This document shows positions 5,904-61,675 of a DNA stretch of 64,000 bases, piece after piece. Each line of letters opens with the position of its first letter. Position 1 is the stretch's first letter. The position numbers and the translations under genes were made by a program. Under the pieces are notes generated by a model that saw only the letters and a program-made list of their open reading frames with translations, searched no databases and was not told the origin of the DNA. Source of the stretch: Bacilli bacterium (GTDB lineage: Bacteria > Bacillota_I > Bacilli_A > RF39 > UBA660); the NCBI GenBank assembly GCA_017398945.1, contig JAFQES010000008.1, forward strand, positions 15,565 through 79,564, read 5' to 3'.

Positions 5904-6191
5904 ATGAACGAAATAAAATTTCATAGTTTAAATGAATTATATAAAAGATTATTACCGGCTTTAAAAAGCAAAAAGAAAACCTTACATCAAAAAGGTTATA
6001 CTTATATATATGAAGAAGATATATGGAATTGCTGTAAGGCCTCTTGGTCTAAAAGAACTAATTTAGAATTATATAATATGGTAGATGATATTTTAAATAC
6101 CGATGATGAAGTATTTGATAAATATTTAAAAGATTATTTTAAAGGCAGTCACCGCCGATTAAGTAAGGATGAGATACATAGTGAGAACTGA
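5904..6191 (+). CDS. ComN/YrzD-like post-transcriptional regulator family protein
   Basis: 95 aa. The pattern LNELYKRLLPAL...EEDIWNCCKASWSK...LELYNMVDDIL and its position next to the spoVB-like gene match the B. subtilis comN (yrzD) arrangement. Confidence 0.55.
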   Translation: MNEIKFHSLNELYKRLLPALKSKKKTLHQKGYTYIYEEDIWNCCKASWSKRTNLELYNMVDDILNTDDEVFDKYLKDYFKGSHRRLSKDEIHSEN

Positions 6192-8337
6192 CATTTTAAC
6201 AATTGATGATTTATTAAAATTAGTAGACAAAAACTTTCAAAGAAATAATAGTTTAAAAAGGATCAAAAAAGCCTATGATTTTGCTTTAGAAAATCATGCT
6301 GGAAAAACTAGATTAACTAAAGATCCTTACATAATGCATCCATTAAATGTTGCTTATATATTAGCCAATTTAAATGTTGATGAAACAACGATCGTTGCAG
6401 CATTAATTCACGAAACAATAAATAATGGTAATGCTACAGAAGAAGAGATAGAAAATTTATTTGGCATTGAAGTTAAAAATATTGTAAGCATAATTTCGAA
6501 AATAAATAAACTAGAAGCAACAGATGATTCTGATTCAGCATCAATATATTTGCGCAAAGTATTAGTTGGTATGGCAGAAGATGTCAGAATTTTATATGTA
6601 AAATTAGCTGATCGTTTGCACAATATGAGAACAATCTGGGCCGTTCGAAAAGAAAAACAAAAACATAAAGCAAATGAAACTATGAATGTGTTGGTGCCAA
6701 TTGCTCATCGACTTGGAATAAATTCAATTAAAAGTGAATTAGAAAATATATGTTTACGCATTTTAAAACCTGATGTCTACCACGATATTGAAGAAAAATT
6801 AAATGAATCATTCCCTGATTCAAAAATTATTTTAAATGATATGCAAGATGCTATAACAAATATTTTAATTGAAAATGATATTAAATTCGAAATCAAAAGT
6901 CGGGTGAAAAGTGTCTATAGCGTTTACAATAAACTAAATAATGGTAAGAAGTGGAATAATATATATGACTTTTTAGCTTTAAGAATTATTTTAGAAAAAG
7001 AAAGCGATTGCTATTTAGCAGTTGGTTTAATTCATTCTAAATTTAGACCCATGCCAAATCGTTTTAAAGATTATATAGCTATGCCCAAAGAAAACATGTA
7101 TCAATCATTACATACGACAATATTTGGAGCAGATGGACATTTATTCGAAGTTCAATTAAGAACATACGAAATGGACGAGTTTGCCGAAAAAGGTATGGCT
7201 TCTCATTGGTCATATAAAGAAAAAGGCACCAAAAAAGCTCAAAATATTATGGAACAAAAACTAGAAATATTTAGGGCAGTTATCGAAAATAATCGCGATG
7301 AAGAAAATGATAGCATCTTTGCTAAAAATATTTCGGGAGAATTTTTATCAGATTTAATATATGTTTTCACCCCTAAAGGGGATGTTGTAGAACTTCCTAA
7401 AGGAGCAACTCCAATTGACTTTGCTTATCGTATCCATTCAAACGTTGGTTCTAAAATGGTTGGCGCTATCGTAAATGATGTAATGGTTCCATTAACATAT
7501 GAACTACAAGATAATGATATAGTTACCATAAAAACTAGTAATAGTGCAAAACCAAATAAAGATTGGTTAAACATAGTTAAAACATCCCAAGCCAAGAATA
7601 AAATTAAGGCTTATTTTAGCAAACAAGATAAAGCTATGTATATTGAAAGAGGAAAACAATATCTAGAAAAAGAACTGCGCAAAAGAAAACTTTCGATAGC
7701 CGAAACTTTAAGTGACGAAAACATCGAAAAAATATTAAAAGACTTAAAACTTAAAGATCTAAATGATATTTATTTTTCAATTGGATCAGTAAGATACACA
7801 GCCGGCTATATAATTAACTTAACAACTGAAGACAAGCATTCAACCCAAGAAGCATTAATTGAAAAGTTACAAGATAATAAGAAAAATATTGTTTCTAATC
7901 ACAAAAGTGAAATAATTGTTGCTGGAGCTAATGATATTATTGTTAATTTCGCTAAGTGCTGTAATCCGATCAAAGGAGACAATATTGTTGGATATATTAC
8001 TAAAAACCAAGGAATTATCATTCATAAAGAGGGTTGTAAAAATATAGAAAATAAACAAGATCGATTTGTTGATGTTATTTGGAATGAATCTAGTGACAAT
8101 TTATTTATAAGAAAATTACATGTAAAAATAAATGACAATAAAAATCACATGATGGATATTTTTACCTTAGCGGCGAAAAGAAACTTTACAATTGTTTCAA
8201 TCGATACTAAAGAAAGCTATGAAAATAATTTGCCAAACATTAACTACGAAATAAGCATAAAAATCAAAAATATTGCTGAATATAATACATTTGTAAAAGA
8301 TTTAAATAACCAAACATATATAACGGAGGTTTACTGA
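6169..8337 (+). CDS. relA: Long RelA/SpoT homologue with an intact (p)ppGpp synthetase and a degenerate hydrolase motif (RelA-like)
   Basis: Synthetase motifs are present: RVKSVYSVYNK, DFLALRII, DYIAMPKENMYQSLHTT, EVQLRTYEMDEFAEKGMASHWSYKE. A TGS domain (IYVFTPKGDVVELPKGATPIDFAYRIHS), a CC zinc-finger region and a C-terminal ACT/RRM-like domain are also present. The hydrolase HDVxEDT motif reads HETINNG. The start may be ATG 6169 or GTG 6181. Confidence 0.9.
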   Translation: MRYIVRTDILTIDDLLKLVDKNFQRNNSLKRIKKAYDFALENHAGKTRLTKDPYIMHPLNVAYILANLNVDETTIVAALIHETINNGNATEEEIENLFGIEVKNIVSIISKINKLEATDDSDSASIYLRKVLVGMAEDVRILYVKLADRLHNMRTIWAVRKEKQKHKANETMNVLVPIAHRLGINSIKSELENICLRILKPDVYHDIEEKLNESFPDSKIILNDMQDAITNILIENDIKFEIKSRVKSVYSVYNKLNNGKKWNNIYDFLALRIILEKESDCYLAVGLIHSKFRPMPNRFKDYIAMPKENMYQSLHTTIFGADGHLFEVQLRTYEMDEFAEKGMASHWSYKEKGTKKAQNIMEQKLEIFRAVIENNRDEENDSIFAKNISGEFLSDLIYVFTPKGDVVELPKGATPIDFAYRIHSNVGSKMVGAIVNDVMVPLTYELQDNDIVTIKTSNSAKPNKDWLNIVKTSQAKNKIKAYFSKQDKAMYIERGKQYLEKELRKRKLSIAETLSDENIEKILKDLKLKDLNDIYFSIGSVRYTAGYIINLTTEDKHSTQEALIEKLQDNKKNIVSNHKSEIIVAGANDIIVNFAKCCNPIKGDNIVGYITKNQGIIIHKEGCKNIENKQDRFVDVIWNESSDNLFIRKLHVKINDNKNHMMDIFTLAAKRNFTIVSIDTKESYENNLPNINYEISIKIKNIAEYNTFVKDLNNQTYITEVY

Positions 8338-8771
8338 TGAAAGTAGTAGTCCAAAGATGTGAAAAAGCTAGCGTTTCAGTTGATGATAAATTAATTAATG
8401 CCATCGAAAACGGCTTAATGATTTTAGTTGGATTTACCGAAGGGGACACCGAAAAAGAGATTGATTATATGGTCAAAAAAGTTGCTAATTTAAGAATATT
8501 TGATGATGAAAATGGCATTATGAATAAATCTGTTTTAGACATAAAAGGGAGCATTCTATCAATAAGTCAATTTACTTTATATGGTGATGCTTCCAAAGGA
8601 AATAGACCTAGTTATATCAAAGCTCTAAATGGAGAAAAAGCAACAAAATTATATGATTTATTTAATGAAAAACTAAATGAACTAGCTCCAACTAAAACAG
8701 GAGTATTTGGAGCTGAAATGAAAATTGATTTTATAAATGATGGTCCAATAACTATTATTTTAGAAAAATAA
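8337..8771 (+). CDS. dtd: D-aminoacyl-tRNA deacylase
   Basis: MKVVVQR...ASV, SQFTLYGD..KGNRPS, GVFGAEMKIDFINDGPIT. ATGA overlap with the relA stop. Confidence 0.92.
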   Translation: MKVVVQRCEKASVSVDDKLINAIENGLMILVGFTEGDTEKEIDYMVKKVANLRIFDDENGIMNKSVLDIKGSILSISQFTLYGDASKGNRPSYIKALNGEKATKLYDLFNEKLNELAPTKTGVFGAEMKIDFINDGPITIILEK

Positions 8772-8828
8772 TTGAAAGAACATTTTATATTTGTTAATAT
8801 AACAAATAAATTCAGGAGGTTTTTTAAA

Positions 8829-10658
8829 ATGGAAAAATCTAAAACTAATATACTTGTAATTTCAGAACACGAAAAGGATTATAACGCAATTAAAGCTATT
8901 GGTTACACTCACGTAGATTATATTCCCTCATCTGTAGTAGCAACTAAATACTTTAGCGGTAAAAATCGTAACGCATTAAATCAATACCATTATATATTTG
9001 TCAATCATAATATAATAGATAACAATAACTACGGAAACTATGACCACTATAAAAACGAATTTATTGATTTGTTATTTTGCAGAGGATGTCTAGTAATTGA
9101 TTATTTATCACATGAAGATAGCGATGAGATACGTGCTTCTGTTTATACAGGAGCAAAAAAATCATTATTAAATTATAATTTATATCATAATATGAAAGAT
9201 TTATTTGCAAAGTTTGATGAACTCAATTGGAAACACAAGAAAAAAGAGTATCAACCAATAAATTATATAAATCAAAAGAAACTACCTTTATGTCCCTCTT
9301 TAAAAAACATTAAAGTATTAATGTTAATACCTTATCCAGACAAAATAATTGATAAATTAAAATCATTTGCTAATGGGATTGGTATAAAAAAACTTGAAAT
9401 AGTTGAAGACCATAATTGCGCATTTAATGAAAATTACGTCACTAAATTAGCTGATTATGATATTATTTTGGCAAGTAGTCTATATTCAAGCAAAATACTT
9501 AGTTTAGCTAAAGAAGCATCTATTCAATGTCAAGCCTCTGGTAAACAATTACTTATATTACAAACATATAGCGATGTTCTTTATTATAACCAATCAAATA
9601 TACATTATAAAATAATAAAACCAAACCCAGAAAAAATAGAAGACATTTATCAAGAATGTAAATTAGGAATAACAAAAGAAGAAATAGATTTTTATAAATG
9701 GTTATTAGAAACATCGGCATATAGATATATTGCTAAAAGAAATATTATTTGTCCAAGAGGCGAAGTCTTAGAACACAATTTATATAGCGAAAAAAAATAT
9801 GAAACCATATATCAAAATGAGGTTTCTGAAAAAGAAAGAGAATTACAACTTTTTCAAGAAGTATACAGATTTATAAATCGTTATTTTACCGATAAAAACA
9901 TAGACAAAAACAAATTAAGATTGAAAAACTTAAACTTAAAAGAAACGAAATATACAAAAGATTATACAACAATATATGTATATCATGCTTTGTTTGAAAC
10001 TAAAAACAAAGAAAAATACGAAATACTAATTGATACAAAATGTGGTTATAACGGTCGTGAAATTGCTAACACCAATGCAGTTGAATTACAAATCATTAAA
10101 CCATATGACGCTAAATTTAAACCACGCAAATTAAACTTTTCTCAAATCTGGTCTCGTTATGGAGTACATGCCGATTGGGCTAATCCCGAAGATATAACTA
10201 TATTAACTGAATTGTTGCAAGTTCTAAAGCAAGAATTAAAGCCAACATTTAACAAAATAGATGCTGAACAAACTCAAATCATTAATAGAAAATACACTTA
10301 TAGTGAAATAATAAATTCAGTAAAAGAGTATCTAAAACTAGAAAATACTTCCCAAATTTATATTCCTGGTCAAATAAAAATTGAACGCAGAAAAATTGAT
10401 TATAAAATAACCTGCTATATTAACGAAAATCCTGTATCAATTATGATAATTAATAAAGAAAATTGTAGTACTCAATTTGAATTAAGTGTTTTAAATAAAA
10501 ACGGCAATTTAGCTCCAAGTCGAGTAATAAAATTAGATGAGAAACCTCCGTATAACGAGAAAGAATTAACGACACTAGAAGCAATTAAGAAAAAATTGGA
10601 ATTTCATTTAAATAAAAGCAAAGATTGTCAAAAAAGAAATAGAAAGAAGCCGGAATAA
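8829..10658 (+). CDS. Hypothetical 609-aa protein with two N-terminal flavodoxin/receiver-like modules and two beta-rich C-terminal repeats
   Basis: AGGAGG SD 9 nt before ATG 8829. Beta-alpha patterns NILVISEHEKDYNAIKAIGY and IKVLMLIPYPDKIIDKLKSF lack a phospho-acceptor Asp pair. No catalytic motif recognised. The next gene starts 1 nt after the stop. Confidence 0.7.
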   Translation: MEKSKTNILVISEHEKDYNAIKAIGYTHVDYIPSSVVATKYFSGKNRNALNQYHYIFVNHNIIDNNNYGNYDHYKNEFIDLLFCRGCLVIDYLSHEDSDEIRASVYTGAKKSLLNYNLYHNMKDLFAKFDELNWKHKKKEYQPINYINQKKLPLCPSLKNIKVLMLIPYPDKIIDKLKSFANGIGIKKLEIVEDHNCAFNENYVTKLADYDIILASSLYSSKILSLAKEASIQCQASGKQLLILQTYSDVLYYNQSNIHYKIIKPNPEKIEDIYQECKLGITKEEIDFYKWLLETSAYRYIAKRNIICPRGEVLEHNLYSEKKYETIYQNEVSEKERELQLFQEVYRFINRYFTDKNIDKNKLRLKNLNLKETKYTKDYTTIYVYHALFETKNKEKYEILIDTKCGYNGREIANTNAVELQIIKPYDAKFKPRKLNFSQIWSRYGVHADWANPEDITILTELLQVLKQELKPTFNKIDAEQTQIINRKYTYSEIINSVKEYLKLENTSQIYIPGQIKIERRKIDYKITCYINENPVSIMIINKENCSTQFELSVLNKNGNLAPSRVIKLDEKPPYNEKELTTLEAIKKKLEFHLNKSKDCQKRNRKKPE

Positions 10659-10659
10659 T

Positions 10660-11337
10660 ATGGCTGATGTAGTAAAAATTGAAGATCGTTCATTATGCGC
10701 TGAATGCGGCGGACAATGTTGCAAAAAATGTGGTTGTGATTTATTTATATCTGATATTGAAAAACCAGAATATGATTATATTAATAAGTTATTAGATAGC
10801 GGACGAGTTTCAATTGTATCAAGAATATATGTTTTGCCGTTAAAAAATGGCTCATACGCTATAAATCCATTTTTACATTTAAGAACTAGAAATATTGATA
10901 GAGAGGCAATAGATTTATTTTCTTTGAAAAAAACATGTGCATCATTAGAAGATGATGGTTGTTTTTGGGATTTATACCACCGACCAAGCGGAGCAACTCA
11001 TATTAAACCATCAAAAAATGCAGCTGGAGAGTTTACATGCAAGCCTACATTAGATCACAAAGCAGAAATAAAAAAATGGGAAAAATACCAAAAACTACTA
11101 GCTAAAATTGTTAAAGAAAGAACCGGTAACACAGTATATGAACAACTAAGATTAGATGTTATAAAAACATTTAATGACATATTAAATAGAAATTTTGAAG
11201 GAGTTAGCAAAGAAGCTTTAGAAGAGTTCGAAGAAATATTTCCAGTATTAAAATCAAGATATGCTGATGAATATAAAATCGCTCAAGAAACTTATAAAAA
11301 ACAGAACCCATTGCTTCTTAGAATTCATCGTCAATAA
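10660..11337 (+). CDS. CxxCxxCC-motif (YkgJ/UPF0153-like) zinc/iron-chelating domain protein with a helical C-terminal extension
   Basis: CAECGGQCCKKCGC near the N-terminus and CASLEDDGCFWDLYHRPSG downstream. This matches the two-part Cys pattern of the YkgJ family. Confidence 0.7.
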   Translation: MADVVKIEDRSLCAECGGQCCKKCGCDLFISDIEKPEYDYINKLLDSGRVSIVSRIYVLPLKNGSYAINPFLHLRTRNIDREAIDLFSLKKTCASLEDDGCFWDLYHRPSGATHIKPSKNAAGEFTCKPTLDHKAEIKKWEKYQKLLAKIVKERTGNTVYEQLRLDVIKTFNDILNRNFEGVSKEALEEFEEIFPVLKSRYADEYKIAQETYKKQNPLLLRIHRQ

Positions 11338-16314: not shown

Positions 16315-17781
16315 ATGTCTAATATGAATAAAACAATTAAAGAATTACACGAGCTTTTAAAAAATGGTGAAATTACTAGTGAAGAATTAGTCAAAGAATC
16401 ATTAGAAAAAGCTCACCAATTACAAGAAGAGTGTAATGCTTTCGTAACAATTATTGATGATGCTAATCCAGAAAAAGTAACAGATAACTTACTTTCAGGA
16501 ATTCCTTATGGAATAAAAGATAACTATAGTACTAAAGGAATACTAACTACTGGTTCTTCAAACACTTTAAAAGATTATATTCCGTACTTTAACGCAACTG
16601 CCATTGAAAAGTTAAATAAAGCTGGGGCAGTTAAAGTAACCAAAACAGTTATGGATGAATTTGGCATGGGTGGAACCGGAACTACAGGGCACACTGGAAT
16701 AGTTCTAAATCCATGGGACAAAACTCGAATTTGTGCCGGTTCTTCTGCCGGAAGTGCTTGTGCAGTTGCTGCTGGAGTATTTCCTTATGCTTTAGGTACA
16801 GATACAGGCGATTCTATTCGTAAACCAGCTGCTTACTGTGGAATTGTTGGATATAAACCAACCTACGGAATGATATCACGTTACGGGGTATTTCCTTTTG
16901 CATCTAGCTTAGATCACCTAGGAGTGCTAGCAAGAAATGTCGAAGACTGTGCTATTGTTGTGGACGAAATGAAAGGCATAGATGAAAAAGATATGACTTC
17001 GTGGGATTCAAAAAATATCAATTTATTTGCCAATTTAAAAGAAGAAACTGAAGGCAAAAAACTTTGTTATATTAAAGAATTATGTGATATTTCTAGTTAT
17101 CCAAATGCTGATGAAGAATTAAGACTTCACTTAGAAAACTTTCATAAAACTATTCAAAAATGCCGTAACTTAGGTATAGAAGTTGAAGAAGTAAGCGTAG
17201 ATAGAAAATTATTAAATGCTTTATTTAGTTCTTATATCGTTATTTATTCAGCAGAAGCATCAAGCAATATGAGCAATTTAACAGGTATTATTTTTGGACC
17301 TCGTGGAAATGCTGATAACTACATTGATATGATTAAAGATCATCGAACAAATGGTTTTTCAACGTTGATTAAAAGAAGATTTATAATTGGTTCATATGTT
17401 CTTCAAAAAGAAAATATGGAAAGATATTTTAAAAATGCCCAAAGAATCAGAAGACTAGCAGTTGATATTTGGAAAGATTTATATAAAAAATACGATGCAG
17501 TTATATCCCCAGTAGGAATTGGACCAGCTAAAAAAATAGAAGATATTAATAAATCGCACGATACAAATACTGTAACTTTAGATGAATATCTATGTATTGC
17601 CAATTTTGGAGGATTCCCATCAATTACAATTCCTAATGGTTTTGTAAATAATTTACCAGTAGGAGTAAACATTACCGGAAACTGTTTTGATGATTCCAAC
17701 GTTTTAAATATCGCCTATACATTAGAAAATGCCTTAGGATACAAAAATCAAATTGCAAAGGAAGTGAAAAATAATGAGTAA
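16315..17781 (+). CDS. gatA: Glu/Asp-tRNA amidotransferase subunit A
   Basis: Amidase signature GGSSAGSA-like (AGSSAGSACAVAAG), IPYGIKDN, GTDTGDSIRKPA. AAGGTGG SD before ATG 16315. The longer track ORF (16216) overlaps gatC and is not preferred. Confidence 0.92.
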   Translation: MSNMNKTIKELHELLKNGEITSEELVKESLEKAHQLQEECNAFVTIIDDANPEKVTDNLLSGIPYGIKDNYSTKGILTTGSSNTLKDYIPYFNATAIEKLNKAGAVKVTKTVMDEFGMGGTGTTGHTGIVLNPWDKTRICAGSSAGSACAVAAGVFPYALGTDTGDSIRKPAAYCGIVGYKPTYGMISRYGVFPFASSLDHLGVLARNVEDCAIVVDEMKGIDEKDMTSWDSKNINLFANLKEETEGKKLCYIKELCDISSYPNADEELRLHLENFHKTIQKCRNLGIEVEEVSVDRKLLNALFSSYIVIYSAEASSNMSNLTGIIFGPRGNADNYIDMIKDHRTNGFSTLIKRRFIIGSYVLQKENMERYFKNAQRIRRLAVDIWKDLYKKYDAVISPVGIGPAKKIEDINKSHDTNTVTLDEYLCIANFGGFPSITIPNGFVNNLPVGVNITGNCFDDSNVLNIAYTLENALGYKNQIAKEVKNNE

Positions 17782-19201
17782 ATATGAAGCAACAATCGGT
17801 TTAGAACTTCACTGCGAATTAAAAAGTAACTCAAAAGTTTTTTCCCCTTCTAAAAATAGCTATGATGTAACACCAAATAACAATGTTTGTGCTATTGATT
17901 TAGCATTTCCCGGAACATTACCGGTCGTTAATAAAGAATGTGTAAAAAAGGCTTTAATGATGAGTATGGCATTAAATTGTAAACAACCAGAATATATGTG
18001 TTTTGATCGTAAAAACTATTATTACCCCGATCTACCTAAGGGATACCAAATTACGCAATTTTATAATCCTGTTGGTACAAATGGAGAAATTTTAATTAAC
18101 TACGATGGTAAAGAAGTTCCAATTAAAATCCATGAAATTCATTTAGAAGAGGATACCGCAGCTCTAGAACACTTATATAATACAACTACCCTTGATTATA
18201 ATAGAGCAGGGGTCCCACTATTAGAACTAGTAACTGAACCTTGTATCACTTGTGCAGAGGAAGCTATTGCATTTATTGAAACAATTATTGGAATGTATCG
18301 TTATTGCGACATATCTGAAGTAGATACCAAAAAAGGCCAATTAAGATGTGACGTTAACGTATCAATCAAAGAAGTAGGAAGTAATGAATTAGGAACTAAA
18401 GTTGAAGTTAAAAATGTTAATTCCCTTTCTAATATTGCCAAAACAATTGATTATGAAATTGAAAGACAAACAGCTTTAGCAGAAGCAGGTCAATATGATG
18501 AAGTTGTTCAAGAAACGAGAAGATTTGATGAAGCTACTGGCGCAACTATCCATATGCGTTCCAAAGCTGATGCCATCGACTATAAATATTTTCCTGAGCC
18601 AAATATTCCTCCAATTAAAATTGATGCACAATGGTTAGAAGATATCAGAAGAGAAATTCCTGCGCTTCAAAACGAAAGAAGAAAAATCTATACAAGCGAG
18701 TATGGATTAGACGAATATGATACAAATATTATTATTAAAGATAAAAAACATGCTGATTATTTTGAAAAATGTATAGAAATTGGCATTGATGCTAAAACCG
18801 CGTCTAACTGGTTTATTGTTCAAATTTTAGGTTATTTAAATAAAAATTATCTAGATATTACAGAATTTTATTTAAAACCTGAAGATTTAAAAGTAATTAT
18901 AGATGAAATTAATAAAGGAACCATTTCAAATAAACAAGCAAAAGAAATATTTACTAAAGCTTGTGATGAAAAAGTTAGTCCAACAAAATTAATTTCCCAA
19001 GAAGATAGCCAAATATCTGATAAGAATAAATTAGAAGAAATCATCGAAAATATATTAAATAATAATCAAGCTCAAATTGAATCATATCATAACGGAAAAA
19101 CAAACCTTTTTGATTTCTTTGTTGGACAAGTTATGAAAGAAACTAGAGGAAAAGCTAATCCAGTTATAACAAAAGAAATTTTAAATGAAAAATTGAAATA
19201 A
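17774..19201 (+). CDS. gatB: Glu/Asp-tRNA amidotransferase subunit B
   Basis: YEATIGLELH.EL, DRKNYYYPDLPKGYQITQ, HLEEDTA, DYNRAGVPLLE, RCDVNVS, NVNS, C-terminal YqeY-like tail GKANP. Confidence 0.93.
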   Translation: MSKYEATIGLELHCELKSNSKVFSPSKNSYDVTPNNNVCAIDLAFPGTLPVVNKECVKKALMMSMALNCKQPEYMCFDRKNYYYPDLPKGYQITQFYNPVGTNGEILINYDGKEVPIKIHEIHLEEDTAALEHLYNTTTLDYNRAGVPLLELVTEPCITCAEEAIAFIETIIGMYRYCDISEVDTKKGQLRCDVNVSIKEVGSNELGTKVEVKNVNSLSNIAKTIDYEIERQTALAEAGQYDEVVQETRRFDEATGATIHMRSKADAIDYKYFPEPNIPPIKIDAQWLEDIRREIPALQNERRKIYTSEYGLDEYDTNIIIKDKKHADYFEKCIEIGIDAKTASNWFIVQILGYLNKNYLDITEFYLKPEDLKVIIDEINKGTISNKQAKEIFTKACDEKVSPTKLISQEDSQISDKNKLEEIIENILNNNQAQIESYHNGKTNLFDFFVGQVMKETRGKANPVITKEILNEKLK

Positions 19202-19291
19202 TTTACATAACATTTTACACACATATTTAAAAAAATATATATATTAATTCATTAATTTATTATAATAAATATATGAGGGAGCTAGAAATTT

Positions 19292-19762
19292 ATGAAAAGT
19301 CTATTTAATATTTTTAAAAAAGATAAAGAAAAACAAAGAATTATAGTAAAAATTAAAAACGGGAATGAAATATGGGAGACAAAATTAAGCAGTATATATA
19401 ATTTTGACAACTCAATGAAACCTATTGTTTTAACGATACCCGCTAATAAAGAAACAATTTCTATAACTGACGAAGACATTATATCAATGATTCAATTTAT
19501 TATGAGAAATTATCCAAACAAAGGTTTTGAACAGGCAATACAATCACTTGGAAAAATTAACATAATGTTTGCAATAGGAATTATGCCAGAAATTTTTACA
19601 GATATGACATTTAATTATGTTGATCCAACTAAAGTCACAGAAGGATTTCAATATTTTACTTCAGTAATTTTAAAAGGCGACAATAATACATCTATAGGTA
19701 CAGGTATTTTCTTTAACGTTGTAAAAGAAGAAAATATCAATAAGTATTTCACAGCAAATTAA
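19292..19762 (+). CDS. Hypothetical 156-aa protein, first gene of the accessory island after gatB
   Basis: GAGGGAG SD. No recognisable motif. The N-terminus MKSLFNIFKKDKEK resembles that of the next ORF (FSLFKKRKNN). Confidence 0.6.
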   Translation: MKSLFNIFKKDKEKQRIIVKIKNGNEIWETKLSSIYNFDNSMKPIVLTIPANKETISITDEDIISMIQFIMRNYPNKGFEQAIQSLGKINIMFAIGIMPEIFTDMTFNYVDPTKVTEGFQYFTSVILKGDNNTSIGTGIFFNVVKEENINKYFTAN

Positions 19763-19792
19763 AATATTTATAAAAATAGAGGTGATAATAAA

Positions 19793-20329
19793 GTGTTTAG
19801 TTTATTTAAAAAAAGAAAAAACAATATAATATTTGAATCAAATGTAAATAATTTTGATGAAAACAAACTAAATATAATTTACGAAAGGCTAACTAATTAC
19901 AAAGATAATTGCAATACATATGAACCAATATCAAACGTAGAAATAGAATCCAAGAATATTATTATTGGAGAAAAGTTACTTGTTAAAATTCCAAATGATT
20001 ACAAACAACTATTACAAAAAAGCAATGGTATTTATTTTGGAAATGGTATTAAATTATTAAACTGCGATGAAATTTTAGAAGAAACTGTAATTTTTAAAGA
20101 TATGATGGAAGATTGGGAAATTGGAAGAATTACTAAGCCGTTTTTAGAAATTATCAGATATCATGACGGCAATGGATTTGTTTTTTGGTATTCTGAAATC
20201 AATAAATATGTTGTTGCAGATTACATAACTGATTATGAGTTGGATGATTTAAAATCTCTTAAAACATTTGATAATATATGCGAAGTAATAGAAGATCTAG
20301 AAAATAGATACATAAAAAGAGTAAATTAA
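19793..20329 (+). CDS. SMI1/KNR4 (SUKH-1) family protein, immunity-protein-like
   Basis: GTG start after a GAGGTGA SD. SUKH-1 hallmark IPNDYKQLLQKSNGIYFGNGIKLL, plus a downstream aromatic-rich beta region (GNGFVFWYSE). Confidence 0.65.
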   Translation: MFSLFKKRKNNIIFESNVNNFDENKLNIIYERLTNYKDNCNTYEPISNVEIESKNIIIGEKLLVKIPNDYKQLLQKSNGIYFGNGIKLLNCDEILEETVIFKDMMEDWEIGRITKPFLEIIRYHDGNGFVFWYSEINKYVVADYITDYELDDLKSLKTFDNICEVIEDLENRYIKRVN

Positions 20330-20351
20330 TTTTTACTTTTTTTATTTGCTA

Positions 20352-20360
20352 TGGTATAAT
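20352..20360 (+). promoter_or_regulatory. Extended -10 promoter element (TGgTATAAT) upstream of the HerA-like gene
   Basis: tggtataat at 20352-20360, 26 nt before ATG 20386, followed by an AGAGG SD. Confidence 0.45.
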
Positions 20361-20385
20361 TTTATACATAATAGAGGTGACTAGT

Positions 20386-22167
20386 ATGTTTGGAAGAATT
20401 TTATATATTTCCGATAATATTGCAGAAGTAGAAAATGTAGCACAAGGAACAATTACAGCTGACTTAATGAATGTTCATGTGATTTTCGAATCACAAGATC
20501 AAAGAATTTTAGGAGAAATTACAGAATTAAACGATAAAACCATGAAAATAAGGTTTTTAGGAGAATACATTAATGGTAAATACGTAAATGGTATTATGCG
20601 TAAGCCATTATTATCTTCTAAAATAAGAATTATTAGTAATAATGAATTATTAGAATTAGTTGGACAACCAACCAATAAAAGTTTTACTTTAGGAAAAAGT
20701 GCTGTATACAAAAACTATACCATTTATCCGGAAATAAATAGTTTTTTTTCAAGCCATCTAGCTATATTTGGTAACTCAGGTAGTGGTAAATCTTGTGGAG
20801 TAGCAAGAATTGTTCAAAATGTATTTTCTAATCCAAGCATGTTATCATCTAATGCGAACCTTTTTATTTTTGATGCTTATGGTGAATATAAAAATGCCTT
20901 TGCAGCTATAAGTAATTACAACGAAAACTATAATTATAAATTTATAACTACAAACCCAGAAGATGAAAATGATTTTCTACTTCAAATCCCAACTCATTTA
21001 CTTACATTAGATGACTGGGCATTAATGTTACAAGCATCTAATCATAGTCAATTACCAATCATTGAAAGAACTATCAAGCTAGCTAAGATATTTGCTCAAA
21101 ATGACCAAGCTGCTCAAGCATATAAGAGTCATCTAATAGCTAAAGCTCTACTTGCTGTATTATTTAGTAGTGAAACAACCGCCTTAAAGAAAAATCAAAT
21201 CTTTACTATTATTGAAGTATGTAATACCCCTGAATTTAACTTTGGTAGTGTAATTCCTGGATTAGGTTATACTAGAACATTAAGCGAATGCTTTGAAATA
21301 GATTCCAACGGAAACTTTGGTGAAAGTGTTTTAATTACTAATTATATTCTAAGCTTTATCAAAGATGATATTGAAAATATTACCGTACCAACTGATAGTT
21401 TCTATTCGATAAGAGATTTTGCTAAAGCCATGGAATTTACTTTGATTAGTGAAGGATTCCAAAACAATGAAAACTTATATTCAGATTCAATTATTTTAAA
21501 AGTACGTTTAAACGCTATTATAACAAGTAAAGTAGGTAGCTATTTTGAGGGAAATGGTTATACACCAGTTGAAAAATATATTACATCATTAATCGATAAA
21601 CGTGGTAAAAAATCGCAAATTATTAATATTAACTTAGAAGATATCGACGATGTTTATGCTAAAGTAATTGTTAAAATATTCTGTCGCTTATTATTTGAAT
21701 ATAATAAAAATCGTAAAGAAAGAGCTCAAGTACCATACCATTTATTCTTAGAAGAAGCTCATAGATACATTCAAAAAGATTCTGATACATTCTTAATCGG
21801 ATACAACATCTTTGATCGTATCGCTAAAGAAGGAAGAAAATACGGTGTTATTTTAGATATAATTAGTCAACGTCCAGTTGAAATATCAGATACAGTTATA
21901 GCTCAGTGTTCAAACTTTTTAATCTTTAAAATGACCCATCCACTAGATATAAAATACATTGAAGAAATGTTACCAAATATCTCTAGTGATGTAATTGAAA
22001 AGCAAAAAGTATTACAACCGGGAAGTTGTGTAGGTTTTGGAGGGGCATTCAAAATTCCTATGATTGTTAAATTAGACATGCCAAATCCATCACCAGCATC
22101 TGCAAACTGTGATGTATCAACTTGTTGGGCAAACAATAATCAAATAGAAAACGGAAACGAGGTTTAA
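20386..22167 (+). CDS. HerA/DUF87-family ATPase with an N-terminal HAS-barrel
   Basis: HAS-barrel-like N-terminus (GRILYISDNIAEVENV...ILGEITELNDKTMKIRFLGE). Walker A AIFGNSGSGKSCGV. Walker B YHLFLEEAHRY. EGRKYGVILDIISQRPVEISDTVIAQCSNFLIFKMTHPLD and LQPGSCVGFGGAF, typical of the HerA/COG0433 C-terminus. Confidence 0.8.
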   Translation: MFGRILYISDNIAEVENVAQGTITADLMNVHVIFESQDQRILGEITELNDKTMKIRFLGEYINGKYVNGIMRKPLLSSKIRIISNNELLELVGQPTNKSFTLGKSAVYKNYTIYPEINSFFSSHLAIFGNSGSGKSCGVARIVQNVFSNPSMLSSNANLFIFDAYGEYKNAFAAISNYNENYNYKFITTNPEDENDFLLQIPTHLLTLDDWALMLQASNHSQLPIIERTIKLAKIFAQNDQAAQAYKSHLIAKALLAVLFSSETTALKKNQIFTIIEVCNTPEFNFGSVIPGLGYTRTLSECFEIDSNGNFGESVLITNYILSFIKDDIENITVPTDSFYSIRDFAKAMEFTLISEGFQNNENLYSDSIILKVRLNAIITSKVGSYFEGNGYTPVEKYITSLIDKRGKKSQIININLEDIDDVYAKVIVKIFCRLLFEYNKNRKERAQVPYHLFLEEAHRYIQKDSDTFLIGYNIFDRIAKEGRKYGVILDIISQRPVEISDTVIAQCSNFLIFKMTHPLDIKYIEEMLPNISSDVIEKQKVLQPGSCVGFGGAFKIPMIVKLDMPNPSPASANCDVSTCWANNNQIENGNEV

Positions 22168-22169
22168 AA

Positions 22170-23324
22170 ATGAAAAAGATAGAAAAATATATAATAGCAG
22201 TAATAACCCTAATCGCAATTGGAGCTATAGGAACAGCAATTTATTTTGGGCTGAATAAAACTGATGAGGTGAATAACAAGCTTGAAAACAATGTTGAAAC
22301 AAATAAAGATGATCAAGAAAATACTACAAAAAAAACTACTTTAACATTTTATAAAAATGATAAAGTACTATCTACGTTTGAATGTGATGGAGAATGTCGT
22401 GTGGTAACTTTCGATCAGGATTATTTCGAAGATTCGGATTACTATGTTAAAATTAAAGAAAATATTGAAGGTGAATCAGTTCAATATTTAGGATCTCAAA
22501 ATATTAATGTAATTATAGAATATTGTAAAAATGATATCTGTCAAGGCATAAATTCTTATAACAAAGATTACTTTGAACCTAAAATCGAAAAAAATAAGGC
22601 TGTCGGAATAGTATTATTATATAATATAGAAACCGGAAATTATAATAATTATAATAACATATCGAAAACTTTTTATGGAACTAATATGACTATTTTAGAA
22701 AATAAACAAAACAACGAATACAATTACACAGTATTACTTAAAAATGGTTTTTCACGCGAATTGACAACAACGCCAACTATCTATGATGAAGGAAATCGCC
22801 ATATGAAATTCCCTAAAACAGACGGGGACGTGTTAATTAGCGAAAATAATTATAAATTTGGTGTAGAAGAATTAAAAACTGGTAAAGTGATTATTAAACA
22901 CGAATACGATGACATTTACAGCTACGATGAAGATACATATGTTGCGAAAAAAGATGGTTCATATAATGTATACAATTCCAAAACAAATACAAAATTATTT
23001 AATAAAGATTACAAAATAATTTATAAAATTAATAACAACTCATATATGGTCTTAAATGAAAATAAAGTTCAAGTTATAAATGAAAAAGAGAAGATAATCT
23101 CTAAAAATAATTTTGAAGTTAAAGAAGTTTGTAAAAATTCATACATGCAAAGAGGTTATAGGGCATATGAACAGGATGGTAAATATCATATCGATATATG
23201 TGCATCAGATAAAATAGATAAAAATGGTGTAGCTATTGGCAGCTATGAAGCAGAACTTAACTATAAATATGATCTAAAAACAAGAAAATTTGAAGGAATA
23301 ATTAATTATAATTGGTCTGAATAA
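22170..23324 (+). CDS. Membrane-anchored extracytoplasmic protein with a Cys-rich region and WG-repeat-like beta repeats
   Basis: Starts 2 nt after the HerA-like stop, with its SD (GAGG) inside the HerA 3' end. N-terminal TM segment YIIAVITLIAIGAIGTAIYFGL. Repeats of the type YKFGVEELKTGKVIIKHEYDDIYSYDEDTYVAKKDGSYNVYN. Confidence 0.65.
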   Translation: MKKIEKYIIAVITLIAIGAIGTAIYFGLNKTDEVNNKLENNVETNKDDQENTTKKTTLTFYKNDKVLSTFECDGECRVVTFDQDYFEDSDYYVKIKENIEGESVQYLGSQNINVIIEYCKNDICQGINSYNKDYFEPKIEKNKAVGIVLLYNIETGNYNNYNNISKTFYGTNMTILENKQNNEYNYTVLLKNGFSRELTTTPTIYDEGNRHMKFPKTDGDVLISENNYKFGVEELKTGKVIIKHEYDDIYSYDEDTYVAKKDGSYNVYNSKTNTKLFNKDYKIIYKINNNSYMVLNENKVQVINEKEKIISKNNFEVKEVCKNSYMQRGYRAYEQDGKYHIDICASDKIDKNGVAIGSYEAELNYKYDLKTRKFEGIINYNWSE

Positions 23325-23391: not shown

Positions 23392-23397
23392 AAAAAT

Positions 23398-23578
23398 GCC
23401 TGAGAAGAGTAGTTTGTTTTATATAAAACCGACTAAGATAAAATATAGGGAATCTAATTGGTGTATTGTGTTGAAGACTGATCCATTAAGTGAATCAGAA
23501 TCCTAATATGCATCATGTGATGCCCACCTCGCGAGAGCGGGTTTTTATCACTGACAAACTCCTTCTTGGGTTTTTATT
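23398..23578 (+). ncRNA. ssrS: Candidate 6S RNA (ssrS / bsrA-like) in the aspS-side to tcdA intergenic slot
   Basis: About 180 nt with its own promoter. The 5' end CCTGAGAAG..TTTGT (23399-23417) pairs with the 3' end ACAAA..CTTCTTGGG (23554-23570). A second helix pairs ATAAAACCG (23423-23431) with CGGGTTTTTAT (23538-23548). There is a large internal region with an apical hairpin (CTGAT/ATCAG, 23478-23498) and a U-tract at 23571-23578. B. subtilis 6S-1 (bsrA) is encoded in the aspS-yrvM(tcdA) intergenic region. Confidence 0.5.
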
Positions 23579-23590
23579 TGGAGGTAAAAT

Positions 23591-24274
23591 ATGTTTGATA
23601 AGCTAAATAAACTTATATCAGAAAAACATTTTAAAATAATGCAAAATACCCACATATTACTAGTAGGTATAGGTGGAGTAGGAGGTTATGCTTTTGAAGC
23701 TCTAGTACGTAGCGGAATAGGCAAAATAACCATTATTGATCACGATGTAATTGATATTACAAATTTAAATAGACAAATCATTACAAATCAAGAGAATATT
23801 AATCAAAAGAAAATTGCTGAAGCAAAAAAAAGAGCTTTAGAAATAAATCCTGGATGTGAAATAATTACTCATGATTTATTTTTAGATGAATCAAATATAG
23901 ATGAAATATTTAAAGATAAATTTGATTATATCATCGATGCTTGTGATACCATTACTACAAAAGTTTTACTTGTAAAAAAAGCTCAAGAATTAAATATTAA
24001 ATTAATTTCTTGTATGGGTACTGGAAATAGATTAGATCCTTCTAAAGTAATGATTACAAAACTAAATAAGACTTATAATGATCCATTAGCTAAGGTAATG
24101 CGTAAGCTTTTAAAAGATAATAATTTAAAGACAAATATCAATGTTGTTTGGAGTAGTGAATTGCCAATTAAAACTCGTGATAGAAAACCAAGTTCAATTA
24201 TCTTAGTTCCAAGCGTAGCCGGAATTTATGCTGCTTCATATATAATTAATGACATATTAAAAACTGATTTATAA
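23591..24274 (+). CDS. tcdA: tRNA threonylcarbamoyladenosine dehydratase (ThiF/MoeB-fold, TcdA/YrvM)
   Basis: HILLVGIGGVGGYAFEALVRSGIGKITIIDHDVIDITNLNRQI, IIDACDT, CMGTGNRLDP, YNDPLAKVMRKLL. Confidence 0.85.
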   Translation: MFDKLNKLISEKHFKIMQNTHILLVGIGGVGGYAFEALVRSGIGKITIIDHDVIDITNLNRQIITNQENINQKKIAEAKKRALEINPGCEIITHDLFLDESNIDEIFKDKFDYIIDACDTITTKVLLVKKAQELNIKLISCMGTGNRLDPSKVMITKLNKTYNDPLAKVMRKLLKDNNLKTNINVVWSSELPIKTRDRKPSSIILVPSVAGIYAASYIINDILKTDL

Positions 24275-31681: not shown

Positions 31682-31774
31682 ATGAAAAAGAAAACGAAAA
31701 AAATTCTTGCTTGGGTAATGCTAATCATAATGTTATTTAGTGTCGCAGCTACTTTTTTAGCTTACATTATATAA
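31682..31774 (+). CDS. Candidate 30-aa single-TM peptide, convergent with the prepilin peptidase gene
   Basis: MKKKTKKILAWVMLIIMLFSVAATFLAYII. GGTGA SD 5 nt upstream. Possible promoter TTGCAA-17-TAAATT. Below the ORF-track cutoff. Overlaps the peptidase 3' end by 13 nt. Confidence 0.35.
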   Translation: MKKKTKKILAWVMLIIMLFSVAATFLAYII

Positions 31775-32541
31775 ATAAATAAATAATTTAATAAATTTAC
31801 AAACTTAGGTAAAAAAACATATATTATAGCACAAGCGCTAATTATAAAAGGTCCAAAAGGGACTTCTTTTTTTTGGCCTAAAAACAGATTTAAAAAAGCA
31901 TACGGAAAAGCTAAGAAAGTCGATAAAATTAAAGCGCATAACCCCAATCTTAAGCCTAATATTAAACCAACTACAAAAGAAAGTTTAATATCTCCTCCCC
32001 CTAAAGATTCCCTTTTAAATGCAAAATCACCAATTTTTTTTATTAAAAGCATAAAAGTAAAAAGCATTAAACCACTCACAATGGCAATTATTAAAGTTTT
32101 AAAATCAAAAAAGAAAATTTTAAATACCATAACTAAAATACTAGTTACTAACAAAGGCGAATCTAGAATAATATAATATTTAAAATCGCTGATATAAATA
32201 TTTATACATAATGAAAACAATGTAATACAAACAACTAATTCATAACTAAAACTAGGCCCATATAAATAATATGCCAAACAAAATAACATTCCGGTACTAA
32301 ATTCAACCGCAAAATACTCAAAAGAAATTTTTTTCTTACAATAATGACATTTTCCCCCATTAAAAAGGTACGACAATAAAGGAATTAAATCATACCACTT
32401 TAATGCATGTTTACAATCCGAACAGTAAGAACCAGGTTTAATGATTGATTCGTTCATAGGGCCTCTAGTATTTAAAACATGAAAGAATGACCCAAAAACT
32501 GTTCCAAAAACGAACAAAAAGAAGTAAACAAAACCTTGCAT
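31762..32541 (-). CDS. Type IV prepilin peptidase (PilD/ComC family, A24 aspartic peptidase)
   Basis: N-terminal Zn-Cys pairs CSDCKHAL...CHYC. Catalytic Asp motifs ISDFKYYIILD and GGGDIKL. GGGAGG SD before M5 (32541). Confidence 0.85.
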   Translation of the reverse strand: MQGFVYFFLFVFGTVFGSFFHVLNTRGPMNESIIKPGSYCSDCKHALKWYDLIPLLSYLFNGGKCHYCKKKISFEYFAVEFSTGMLFCLAYYLYGPSFSYELVVCITLFSLCINIYISDFKYYIILDSPLLVTSILVMVFKIFFFDFKTLIIAIVSGLMLFTFMLLIKKIGDFAFKRESLGGGDIKLSFVVGLILGLRLGLCALILSTFLAFPYAFLNLFLGQKKEVPFGPFIISACAIIYVFLPKFVNLLNYLFIYIM

Positions 32542-32552
32542 GCAACCTCCCA

Positions 32553-34106
32553 TTAAATTGCACTATACATTTGGAACATTGGAACAATAACCGCCAACAA
32601 TATTCCTCCAACAATCAAAGCAAGACTAGAAATCATAATGGGTTCTATAAAGTTTTTTAAGTTTCCAACAATGTTACGATGCATATCTTGATAATATTCA
32701 CTTACTTTTTGCATCATTTCGGCAAGTTCTCCAGTTGATTCACCTGTAACAATCATATAATAAGCTACATCAGGTATTGCCCAATGATTATTAAAAGATT
32801 CTGATATTTTATTTCCTCTAACAATATTATCAATTGTATTCGCCATAATTTCTTTATATACTTCATTATTAGTAATCTTACTTAATATCTCCATGCTATT
32901 TGTAATAAATACATTGTTTTTTAACAAAGAAGCAAAAGTTTTAGTAAAAATTGTAATTTCGTTATAAATAATTATTTTGCCAACAATTGGAATACGCATT
33001 GTTATGTTTTGAAAAAACGCTCTAATTGGCTGAACATTTTTATATAAGACGGCCATAATTATAACAAAAAGAACTATACCTAAGATAATAAATAATCCAT
33101 TATTTATTAGAAACTCACTTAAATTAATTATAAAACGAGTTATACCAGGAATTTCAATATTTGATGATTCATAAATATCTACAAATTGAGGAATTACAAA
33201 GACAATTATAAAAACAACTACAGCTAATGCAAAAACAGTTATAATAGTTGGATAAGTCATTGCACTAACCATTTGTTTTTTAGTTTTATCTATTTCAGTA
33301 TAATAATTTGCCATATCATCTAAAGTTTCAATTAATGTTCCCGTTGCTTCTGCTGCCCTGACCATATTGATTAACAAAGAAGGAAACATCTTTCCTTGTT
33401 TTTCCATTGCTGTCGAAAAAGATTCTCCCACAGTTAATTCATATGACAAAGATTGTAAAGCTTTTAATTTATGACGATTTTTTCTACCCATTTGCTTTGA
33501 TAAAATTCTCACAGATTCCGCCAATGTTATACCAGCTTTTAGATAAGTAGATAATTGTGTTAACCAAAAAATTAAATCTTTAACAGACATTTTAGGTTGA
33601 AACATTGTACTGCCACCATACAAAAAGTTAACTGATTTAGAAGTTTTAATACTATAAACTTCATAACCTTCATTAACTAAAAAAGTATTAACTTCTGCCT
33701 TAGAAAAACCATTAATGGTATCTGTAATAATTTTTCCTTCTGGCGTTTTAGCTTTATAAACAAAAGTTACGGCTTCTTTGCTCCTTGTAGCATTTGGATC
33801 TTGCAACTCGTTTATAAGGATTTCTCTTTCTTTTTCTAATTTGGCCAAAGTACTTGAACTATATTTGTATGTTTTTCGGTTTGAATTCATTGGTTTATGA
33901 TTAATATTTGAATTATTTGTACCTGAAAAATTGCGATAAGTTTTATCTAAACGAAAACTTATTATGTCAAAAATATTTTTTGGCAACCGAAAAAAAACAT
34001 AAACAACTCCATTAATAAAATTCAAAAAAATAAAGTAAATATTTTGAAAAGGAAACAATAACCAATTAATCTTTATTTCTTCTTTTTTGATATTACTCTC
34101 AACCAT
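32553..34106 (-). CDS. GspF/PilC/ComGB-family type IV pilus platform protein with an N-terminal extension
   Basis: Two T2SSF-type repeats (LSTYLKAGITLAESV..., TFASLLKNNVFITNSM...), the PilC N-domain (FVYKAKTPEGKIITDTINGFSKAEVNTFLVNEGYEVYSI) and a GESTGEL motif. About 120 extra N-terminal residues include a TM segment. AAGGAG SD before ATG 34106. Confidence 0.8.
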   Translation of the reverse strand: MVESNIKKEEIKINWLLFPFQNIYFIFLNFINGVVYVFFRLPKNIFDIISFRLDKTYRNFSGTNNSNINHKPMNSNRKTYKYSSSTLAKLEKEREILINELQDPNATRSKEAVTFVYKAKTPEGKIITDTINGFSKAEVNTFLVNEGYEVYSIKTSKSVNFLYGGSTMFQPKMSVKDLIFWLTQLSTYLKAGITLAESVRILSKQMGRKNRHKLKALQSLSYELTVGESFSTAMEKQGKMFPSLLINMVRAAEATGTLIETLDDMANYYTEIDKTKKQMVSAMTYPTIITVFALAVVVFIIVFVIPQFVDIYESSNIEIPGITRFIINLSEFLINNGLFIILGIVLFVIIMAVLYKNVQPIRAFFQNITMRIPIVGKIIIYNEITIFTKTFASLLKNNVFITNSMEILSKITNNEVYKEIMANTIDNIVRGNKISESFNNHWAIPDVAYYMIVTGESTGELAEMMQKVSEYYQDMHRNIVGNLKNFIEPIMISSLALIVGGILLAVIVPMFQMYSAI

Positions 34107-34236
34107 AATCAACAACTCCTTATTATGAAACAAGTATAACATATATAATAATTTATTACCATTATTTTTTTCTTTTTTAACAATATTTTAATATTACAAA
34201 ATAATATCTAAGCATATAATAATATAGGTGATTCTA

Positions 34237-53677: not shown

Positions 53678-54379
53678 TCACCCCAATAAGTATTCTAACA
53701 CAACTGGTGCCAAAATAATAAGCATCATTATTGGTAAAAAAAACAATACTGATATAACACTAATCTTAGTTGGCAATTTAGCGATTTGAGCTTTAATGTT
53801 TAATATTTGTTGCTCCCTTAAAAAATCAATTTGATTATATAAAGATTCAATAATACTATTTCCAAAAATATTTGATTGTGTGATATTTAAAATTGTATTA
53901 TTTATTATATCGCTAGGAATCCTTTTTTTCATATCTTCTAAAGCTTCTACTAAACTTTTTCCTAAATCAACTTCTTCAAGCATTCTTTTAAACTCGCTGG
54001 ATATATCATTATTAATGTTTTTGGTTGTTATTTCTAAAGATGCTTTTAAATTTCGTCCACTTTCAAGTGTTAAGGCCAATACTTCAAAAAAATAGATCGC
54101 TTCATTTTCCAAACTTTTTTTTCGTTTGTTTATTTTAACATCTAATAACAAAAATTCATATGCATAAAAATACATTAAACTAATTAATGGTGCCAAAATA
54201 AACCCTTTATCTGATAAAATTAAGATAGCAAAGAATATCATTAATGTAGTAAGCAAACGAACATTTAAAAAATCTAACGAATCAAATTTATTTAACATTC
54301 CAGCTTTAATAATTTTTTCTTTAATTTTTTTAATAGTACTTTTTCGATAAATCTTTAAAATCATTTTACTACTTTTCAT
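53678..54379 (-). CDS. tadC: Tad pilus inner-membrane platform protein TadC-like (T2SSF domain)
   Basis: TM-soluble-TM architecture with a T2SSF-type helical domain (FFEVLALTLESGRNLKASL). 4-nt overlap with the tadB-like gene. Confidence 0.7.
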   Translation of the reverse strand: MKSSKMILKIYRKSTIKKIKEKIIKAGMLNKFDSLDFLNVRLLTTLMIFFAILILSDKGFILAPLISLMYFYAYEFLLLDVKINKRKKSLENEAIYFFEVLALTLESGRNLKASLEITTKNINNDISSEFKRMLEEVDLGKSLVEALEDMKKRIPSDIINNTILNITQSNIFGNSIIESLYNQIDFLREQQILNIKAQIAKLPTKISVISVLFFLPIMMLIILAPVVLEYLLG

Positions 54380-55389: not shown

Positions 55390-55405
55390 AATTTTCCTTC
55401 CTTAT

Positions 55406-61287: not shown

Positions 61288-61390
61288 TATAATCCTTCTT
61301 TCTCTTAATTTTAATTTACGTATAAAACGTCTCTTAATTTTATGAAACATCACAAACAATTATTATCTTCTTTCAAAAAATCACACCCTT

Positions 61391-61669: not shown

Positions 61670-61675
61670 AAAAAC

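Follow-up and report, generated by a model that had tools for sequence, protein, structure and literature searches.

We analyzed a stretch of 64,000 nucleotides from a Bacilli bacterium (GenBank assembly GCA_017398945.1, contig JAFQES010000008.1), hereafter called the window, with a focus on the gene herA and on the gene for a membrane-anchored protein directly downstream of it. The original prediction, made from the DNA letters, was that a HerA ATPase and an extracytoplasmic protein with WG-like repeats form a dedicated two-gene unit in this organism. We find that HerA is a genuine member of its family and that herA is a vertically inherited core gene. The locus is probably best explained by an orphan, core and strongly constrained HerA motor with a housekeeping role, which has an accessory-gene hot spot on either side, and not by a two-gene HerA system. 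The window itself belongs to the core chromosome of an uncultured Bacilli organism with a low GC content (approximately 28%). Its closest genome is the goat-rectum metagenome-assembled genome RGIG3081, and the relatives, which carry labels such as Bacilli, Tenericutes and 'Mycoplasma sp. CAG:776', represent an RF39-type lineage.

The herA product is a true HerA-family ATPase. The list of open reading frames (ORFs) starts the gene at a GTG at position 20377, and the ATG at position 20386, located 8 nt past the Shine-Dalgarno sequence GAGGTG, gives a protein of 593 aa, which is the same length as the database protein P0001. The full HerA signature that had been read from the translation, with a HAS barrel, a Walker A and a Walker B motif, was confirmed. 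The protein contains GNSGSGKS, LFLEEAHRY and GRKYGVILDIISQRPVEISDTVIAQCSNFLIFKMTHPLD, with Walker A at residues G129–S136, Walker B at L455–E457, EGRKYG at 482–487 and SQRP at 494–497, and both GNSGSGKS and LFLEEAH are invariant across 28 HerA homologs. The Pfam profile DUF87/HerA (PF01935) matched with 68 bits (cutoff 23.2, E 1.7e-18) and the PADLOC HerA model PDLC04102 with 357 bits. In the structure model, the N-terminal residues 1–82 form a HAS-barrel-like beta-barrel (strands 2–82), with a predicted local distance difference test (pLDDT) score of approximately 80. The ATPase core was modelled with low confidence from a shallow alignment, and the model was therefore used for fold assignment only. 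The top 47 matches in a Foldseek search of the PDB were all HerA chains, with E-values down to 3.5e-17.

Evidence for a core gene comes from the comparison of related genomes. A scan with one genome per species identified 232 genomes with a HerA relative, and the best 80 of these were analyzed. The identity of HerA across these 80 genomes is 69–98%, and in most of the loci the gene is located between gatB and tcdA-rarA-xerD. The median identity to the window is 71% for HerA, as compared to 69% for gatA, 67% for rarA, 63% for gatB and 51% for tcdA, and the mean pairwise distance is 0.25–0.26 for HerA versus 0.28–0.49 for the same four flanking genes. Common descent was assessed by a Mantel test on pairwise distances, a rank correlation of the identities to the window being uninformative since distances to one reference are star-like. 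The HerA distances were found to be correlated with the distances of the core genes on its flanks (Mantel r 0.37–0.83, p 0.001). Relative to the 98%-identical strain L001, the ratio of nonsynonymous to synonymous divergence (dN/dS) is 0.02 for herA (0.006/0.266), 0.08 for gatB and 0.065 for tcdA. Thus, herA is a syntenic, vertically inherited chromosomal gene under very strong purifying selection, and its conservation, distance tracking and low dN/dS are unlike those of an accessory or defence gene. The unit had been assigned to an accessory island. Accessory DNA does indeed flank herA, but the gene itself lies outside the island.

The order of genes in this part of the window is aspS, asnS, gatCAB, orf156, a SUKH-like gene, herA, the WG-repeat gene, the 6S RNA gene, tcdA, rarA (on the minus strand) and xerD. 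The features of the locus are the following:

17774–19201, plus strand: gatB, a conserved anchor on the left side, located upstream of herA in 40 of the 80 loci; same-species homology extends to 19201–19210.
19202–20329, plus strand: upstream strain-variable cassette with orf156 (19292–19762) and the SUKH-like 178-aa gene (19793–20329); no PADLOC match.
20332–20360, plus strand: promoter-like site upstream of herA, TTTACT-17-TATAAT extended by TG; a consensus match only.
20386–22167, plus strand: herA, 593-aa ATPase of the HerA/FtsK superfamily, identified from profiles, motifs and fold.
22170–22261, plus strand: constant 5' module of the downstream gene with the signal anchor MKKIEKYIIAVITLIAIGAIGTAIYFGLNKT, defined by same-species alignment.
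22262–23324, plus strand: swappable ectodomain cassette, here of the WG-repeat type, all-beta and Cys-containing, defined by homology break points and the WG_beta_rep match.
23394–23576, plus strand: 6S (SsrS) RNA, the conserved right flank, with a full-length match to Rfam RF00013 (62.2 bits, cutoff 46.4).
23591–24274, plus strand: tcdA (ThiF family), the conserved right anchor, located downstream of herA in 62 of the 80 loci; Pfam ThiF, 135 bits.

The genes adjoining herA are highly variable. ORF clustering divided them into approximately 90 unrelated clusters in the 80 loci. The idea that they represent one diverged family was rejected, because only clusters c17, c27 and c54 were weakly related in a profile-profile comparison of 39 clusters (741 pairs). 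In 18 of the 75 loci with a callable downstream gene, herA is followed directly by tcdA, and in L004 the order is gatB-herA-tcdA, with no variable protein gene on either side. A phage origin was also considered and set aside; only two weak terminase-like phage matches were obtained.

Alignments of strains of the same species revealed the boundaries of two slots, one on each side of herA. Homology extends to the gatB stop codon at 19201, breaks, and resumes at 20313–20317, just 5' of the promoter-like site. It then spans herA together with the initial 92 nt of the next gene, stops at 22248–22261 and resumes at 23322–23323, in the stop codon. Among strains with a HerA that is 97% identical, L085–L087 have an empty left slot, L088 has orf156 and the SUKH-like gene there, as in the window, and L001 and L081 have a 329-aa gene that is unrelated to these. 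The pair of orf156 and the SUKH-like gene is a 1.1-kb strain-specific insertion. Known core-genome hot spots and variable surface-protein loci resemble it in that the boundaries of replacement are exact, the anchor at the 5' end is constant, the alleles are much older than the flanks, and presence/absence cassettes lie between core genes and beside a small RNA gene. The locus differs from these in having a hot spot on each side of one conserved ATPase gene, and neither an integrase nor repeats nor a tRNA were seen at the slot boundaries.

Slots flanking herA in other RF39 genomes contain a SoFic-like Fic protein (L074, 4784–5878; PADLOC 162 bits), a Fic-domain protein (L071, 5010–5954) and a Bro-N protein corresponding to the candidate system PDC-S13 (L039, 8585–9493; 362 bits). 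The presence of these genes in the same slots fits general accessory-gene hot spots.

In the window genome, the right slot is occupied by the gene that had been proposed as the partner of herA, and its described layout was verified in full. The herA stop codon TAA (22165–22167) is followed by the two nucleotides AA and by the ATG of the next gene at 22170, and GAGG at 22159–22162 provides a Shine-Dalgarno sequence inside the 3' end of herA. The 384-aa product, here called WG384, is anchored by a single hydrophobic segment at its N-terminus and contains four conserved cysteines and the strings FECDGECRVV and EYCKNDICQG. The proposed WG-like beta units were recovered as a single repeat at residues 236–265 with a score of 26.6 bits against the Pfam family WG_beta_rep (PF14903; cutoff 25.6), which makes WG384 a marginal member. 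The AlphaFold model is all-beta with a mean pLDDT of 72.8 and loosely propeller-like (template modelling score against beta-propellers 0.3–0.4). It is correct for the window genome that there is translational coupling between herA and the gene for a membrane-anchored WG-repeat protein.

This coupling does not extend to a fixed partnership. In the strains of the species that were compared, the right slot always opens with the same anchor, MKKIEKYIIAVI.LIAIGAIGTA.YF. The constant part comprises the first 92 nt, or 31 codons, and within the species the swap runs exactly from codon 31 to the stop codon. The ectodomains found behind the anchor at herA are either of the WG type (384–464 aa, five alleles), or of an unrelated 191-aa type or an unrelated 280-aa type, and the tight junction to herA is the same in all three types. 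Only about five WG-type homologs, approximately 50% identical to WG384, were returned by a search of 5.8 billion proteins, and only one of the 80 loci contains a WG homolog. The WG homologs for which the herA context could be recovered (L001/L081 and L084) adjoin a HerA that is 96–98% identical to that of the window. The synonymous divergence (dS) of the WG ectodomain is 1.5 as compared to 0.15–0.27 in the flanks. The ectodomain alleles are thus far older than their surroundings, which argues for allele replacement rather than rapid local change.

At least four ectodomains that are unrelated to one another occur behind this one anchor. A 261-aa member is located between greA and hrcA (L169, 217–1002), and a WG-type gene with this anchor is located beside clpB and thrS (L083, 181–1413). 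Since such genes occur at other sites, the anchor marks a multi-copy, variable surface-protein family in the species. The original prediction had been made to depend on the conservation of the downstream gene with the ATPase in other genomes, and the gene is not conserved with it. The ectodomain is replaced where HerA is still 97% identical, the WG type is confined to about five strains, genes with the same anchor are found elsewhere, and in 18 loci herA leads straight to tcdA. The proposal of a dedicated system of HerA and a WG ectoprotein, with the downstream gene as its fixed partner, is therefore not upheld. A 2-nt gene junction alone is insufficient to define a system. The locus is nevertheless of value in its own right as a clean natural case of ectodomain cassette exchange behind a constant anchor, and it could mark strain-level surface variation.

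According to the explanation that we favour, HerA would assemble as a ring, as suggested by the hexamers known among its relatives, and by the same analogy it may move along DNA or pump it through the pore using ATP. Its task would be a housekeeping one, for example end processing, recombination or chromosome handling, and any partner would be encoded elsewhere in the genome, or there may be none. The anchored protein would be inserted by Sec and displayed outside the cell, and would be diversified by allele replacement, probably under pressure from phages or the host. It would ride on the herA promoter, be translationally coupled to herA and take no part in the function of the ATPase.

Several observations weigh against this explanation. 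The housekeeping role of HerA is suggested by its conservation only, and the closest characterized relatives are immune ATPases rather than housekeeping proteins. All 80 loci were retrieved via HerA itself, and the counts describe herA-bearing loci. Moreover, 57 of 71 RF39 loci have an adjacent, co-directional gene for a protein with an N-terminal anchor or signal. These proteins belong to nine unrelated families, and the odds ratio for such a neighbour is approximately 11 relative to other genes of the same loci, as counted with the core genes excluded, since a Rossmann segment in tcdA scores as a membrane helix. The gaps to herA are as follows:

Cluster c10, cadherin-like surface protein, upstream of herA: gap of -1 to 18 nt.
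Cluster c9, protein whose function is not known, upstream of herA: gap mostly of 31–47 nt.
WG384 anchor family, as in the window, downstream of herA: gap of 2 nt.

Operon-like gaps of this kind are not predicted by a pure hot-spot model. Further anchored neighbours look like wall hydrolases of the glucosaminidase and GH25 types when their sequences are read by eye.

The tightly spaced, anchored neighbours would be expected if HerA were a modular motor acting at the membrane together with any bitopic envelope protein that happens to be co-expressed, which is a generalized form of the original idea. The bitopic protein would be a sensor, receptor or tether, and its ectodomain would be free to diversify, even by non-homologous replacement. 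The retention of the 2-nt coupling and of the anchor across three ectodomain cassettes within the species is consistent with such a function. We consider this reading unlikely on several grounds. The cytoplasmic parts of the neighbours are only 6–20 residues long, are no better conserved than the ectodomains and do not share a conserved tail across the anchored families. Genes of the anchor family occur away from herA, and herA occurs without such a neighbour, as in L004 and in the 18 loci that continue straight to tcdA. A second, more diverse set of 80 metagenome loci, collected for the wider HerA clade, showed neither a conserved neighbour nor an enrichment of anchored neighbours. Finally, each of the nine families is passed on within a subclade, so that together they represent few independent events. 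We would likewise give a rather low probability to a broader proposal, in which the orphan HerA of RF39 and Acholeplasma-like gut Bacilli would be a new kind of housekeeping, envelope-associated motor that needs a co-expressed bitopic membrane protein, the latter having been replaced many times by non-homologous proteins. Such a motor, of which the window would be one instance, might for example substitute for FtsK in the lineage or serve as a DNA or protein pump.

To our knowledge, the HerA ATPases characterized so far are paired with an effector, which is NurA, SIR2 or DUF4297. The absence of such a partner next to herA, as noted in the original prediction, was borne out in the proteins scanned. 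With regard to NurA, there was no Pfam match in 24 proteins from the window and its neighbours, and no neighbour family was conserved across 160 loci, which are the two sets combined (1748 ORFs); both results refer to the locus neighbourhoods. Searches of these 1748 ORFs with two plasmid SIR2 proteins by blastp, phmmer and hhalign identified no SIR2 homolog, and no degenerate SIR2 was found when the genes upstream of herA were considered. A nuclease of the DUF4297/Cap4 type gave no Pfam or PADLOC match among the window proteins and the scanned neighbour representatives, which are a subset of the neighbours.

Among solved structures, DUF4297-HerA and SIR2-HerA were the best matches, followed by the archaeal and Deinococcus HerA of the NurA machines. 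DUF4297-HerA (PDB 9c1m, 8xau, 8ziq) was the best sequence match, with 183 bits in a search with the family profile, and both its N-terminal region and its ATPase core align with the window HerA; it differs in the adjacent DUF4297/Cap4-like nuclease, which is missing from the window locus. SIR2-HerA (Nezha; PDB 8wiv, 8yho, 8j4u), also among the top structural matches, resembles the window protein in length, in the N-terminal barrel, in a RecA-like core that carries a helical insert and in the conserved P..P..W tail at the C-terminus. The nearest annotated genes belong to SIR2-HerA operons on the plasmids pPIR00540 of Listeria and pWW2 of Lactobacillus, with approximately 30% identity over 90–97% of the length. 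In these operons the SIR2 gene is immediately upstream of herA and overlaps it, whereas the window clade lacks an adjacent SIR2, and the window herA is chromosomal, syntenic and strongly constrained rather than mobile. The end-resection machine HerA-NurA of archaea and Deinococcus (PDB 4d2i, 9x1l, 7wrw) belongs to the same superfamily, has the fold of a ring translocase and has a housekeeping role in DNA repair that resembles the function proposed here. It is more distant, with 75–123 bits and an alignment of the C-terminal half only; the Deinococcus HerA was a weak Foldseek match (E 1.4e-6), and there are no NurA, Mre11 or Rad50 genes near the window herA. The scores against the NCBIfam equivalogs were all far below the cutoffs, both for HerA (NF040937, 117.5 bits versus 800; NF040819, 79.3 versus 970) and for anti-phage HerA (NF042943, 148.9 versus 800; NF042944, 165.5 versus 850). 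The window HerA is a member of the HerA family that falls outside all described partner-defined systems.

The kinship with plasmid SIR2-HerA operons and with DUF4297-HerA structures, together with the high PADLOC score, could also mean that the window HerA is a fixed or domesticated defence ATPase. The clade would be derived from SIR2-HerA-type immune systems and would still have an immune function, either with effectors supplied from the flanking slots or as the stable core of a defence island. The SoFic gene, the other Fic gene, PDC-S13 and the SUKH-like gene in the flanking slots of various genomes are in line with this possibility. However, a dN/dS of 0.02, synteny throughout the order and a conservation that exceeds that of the tRNA-amidotransferase genes are all unlike defence genes, and the scores against the anti-phage HerA equivalogs are far below their cutoffs. 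There is also no conserved effector, and many loci lack any candidate for one. PADLOC lists SoFic and PDC-S13 as separate systems, and we take both to act as single-gene systems. An immune function of the window HerA is therefore regarded as improbable.

Other gut Bacilli with a low GC content, which carry the labels 'Acholeplasma sp.', 'Candidatus Faecisoma' and 'Bacilli bacterium', have full-length relatives at 31–51% identity. In the 80 metagenome loci, herA is surrounded by housekeeping genes, namely yqeG-yqeH, two M16 peptidase genes, sepF-divIVA, the RNase J gene and prsA. It is placed after the M16 peptidase genes and directly upstream of sepF-divIVA in seven of these loci, and one abundant member of the wider clade is located beside a bacteriocin-type ABC transporter cluster. 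The longer members of the clade (753–943 aa) were considered as possible fusions to effector domains, and their extensions proved to be low-complexity tails. In P0129, P0130, P0134 and P0137 the C-terminal tails are 80–350 aa long and contain short repeated motifs (LVxF, EHNPALDFG), and the peptide at their very end is acidic or hydrophobic. These tails resemble a disordered linker with a docking peptide, and P0137 has degenerate Walker motifs as well.

HerA belongs to the FtsK-HerA superfamily, and the orphan protein might accordingly serve at the division site as the pump for chromosome segregation or dimer resolution of the lineage, in the manner of FtsK or SpoIIIE. The position upstream of sepF-divIVA in the wider clade, the location of herA within approximately 3 kb of rarA and xerD in RF39, the similarity of the tails of some distant members to the docking tails of FtsZ or SSB and, as a weak point, the lack of an FtsK-like gene within the 64-kb window would agree with this. 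However, HerA contains neither a membrane domain nor a gamma (KOPS/XerD-binding) domain, and the link to xerD and rarA reflects inherited synteny rather than an independent association, and these genes do not share an operon. We regard such a role as unlikely.

This whole HerA clade lacks an adjacent effector, but its conservation is as tight as that of translation genes, and it is present in at least 232 species-level genomes of gut Bacilli that are prevalent but uncultured. This points to an unrecognized core function for a HerA motor in Firmicutes with reduced genomes, and raises the question of whether the immune HerAs or the housekeeping HerA came first. A literature search for HerA in connection with RF39 or Mollicutes retrieved nothing relevant.

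Three further features of the locus had been named in the original prediction. The 6S-like RNA between herA and tcdA is a clear match to its Rfam family, and the same RNA was found between these genes in six of the 10 loci besides the window that were surveyed with Rfam (L002, L004, L037, L051, L075 and L086). In L075 (Mycoplasma sp. CAG:776), the element between herA and the 6S RNA is not a protein gene but a full-length ROOL RNA (7994–8573, minus strand; Rfam RF03087, 179 bits). The proposed extended -10 promoter of herA is present as TTTACT-17-TG-TATAAT and falls within the block that is conserved in strains with or without the upstream cassette, although such sites are no more common than expected in this AT-rich DNA (32 observed versus 35.9 expected). 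The SUKH gene is a borderline case, as the 178-aa protein scored 24.9 bits against SMI1_KNR4 (cutoff 25.4) and 23 bits against the NCBIfam YrhA family (cutoff 55).

Other parts of the window contain features that are separate from herA. Between dtd and hisS, two unannotated genes encode a 628-aa protein and a 225-aa Cys-rich protein starting with MADVVKIEDRSLCAECGGQCCKKCGCD (8772–11337, plus strand), and this pair may be another accessory insertion in the row of core genes. A 750-aa secreted repeat protein (38011–40263, minus strand) ends in NPQTGD and a hydrophobic tail. This end is similar to a sortase-type sorting signal, which suggests that the organism has a wall. By eye, the genes at 53678–57513 (minus strand) look like a Tad-like pilus or secretion cluster, with a ParA/TadZ-like protein, a TadA-like ATPase and two TadB/C-like membrane proteins, and those at 31762–34142 (minus strand) like a prepilin peptidase and a PilC-like platform protein. 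Two RelA/SpoT homologs were also recognized by eye, a full-length protein of 722 aa (6169–8337, plus strand) and a shorter paralog of 488 aa (61725–63191, minus strand). A T-box leader (61414–61675, minus strand; Rfam 103 bits) is located upstream of a 346-aa ORF (60319–61359) that by eye resembles an AsnA-type aspartate-ammonia ligase.

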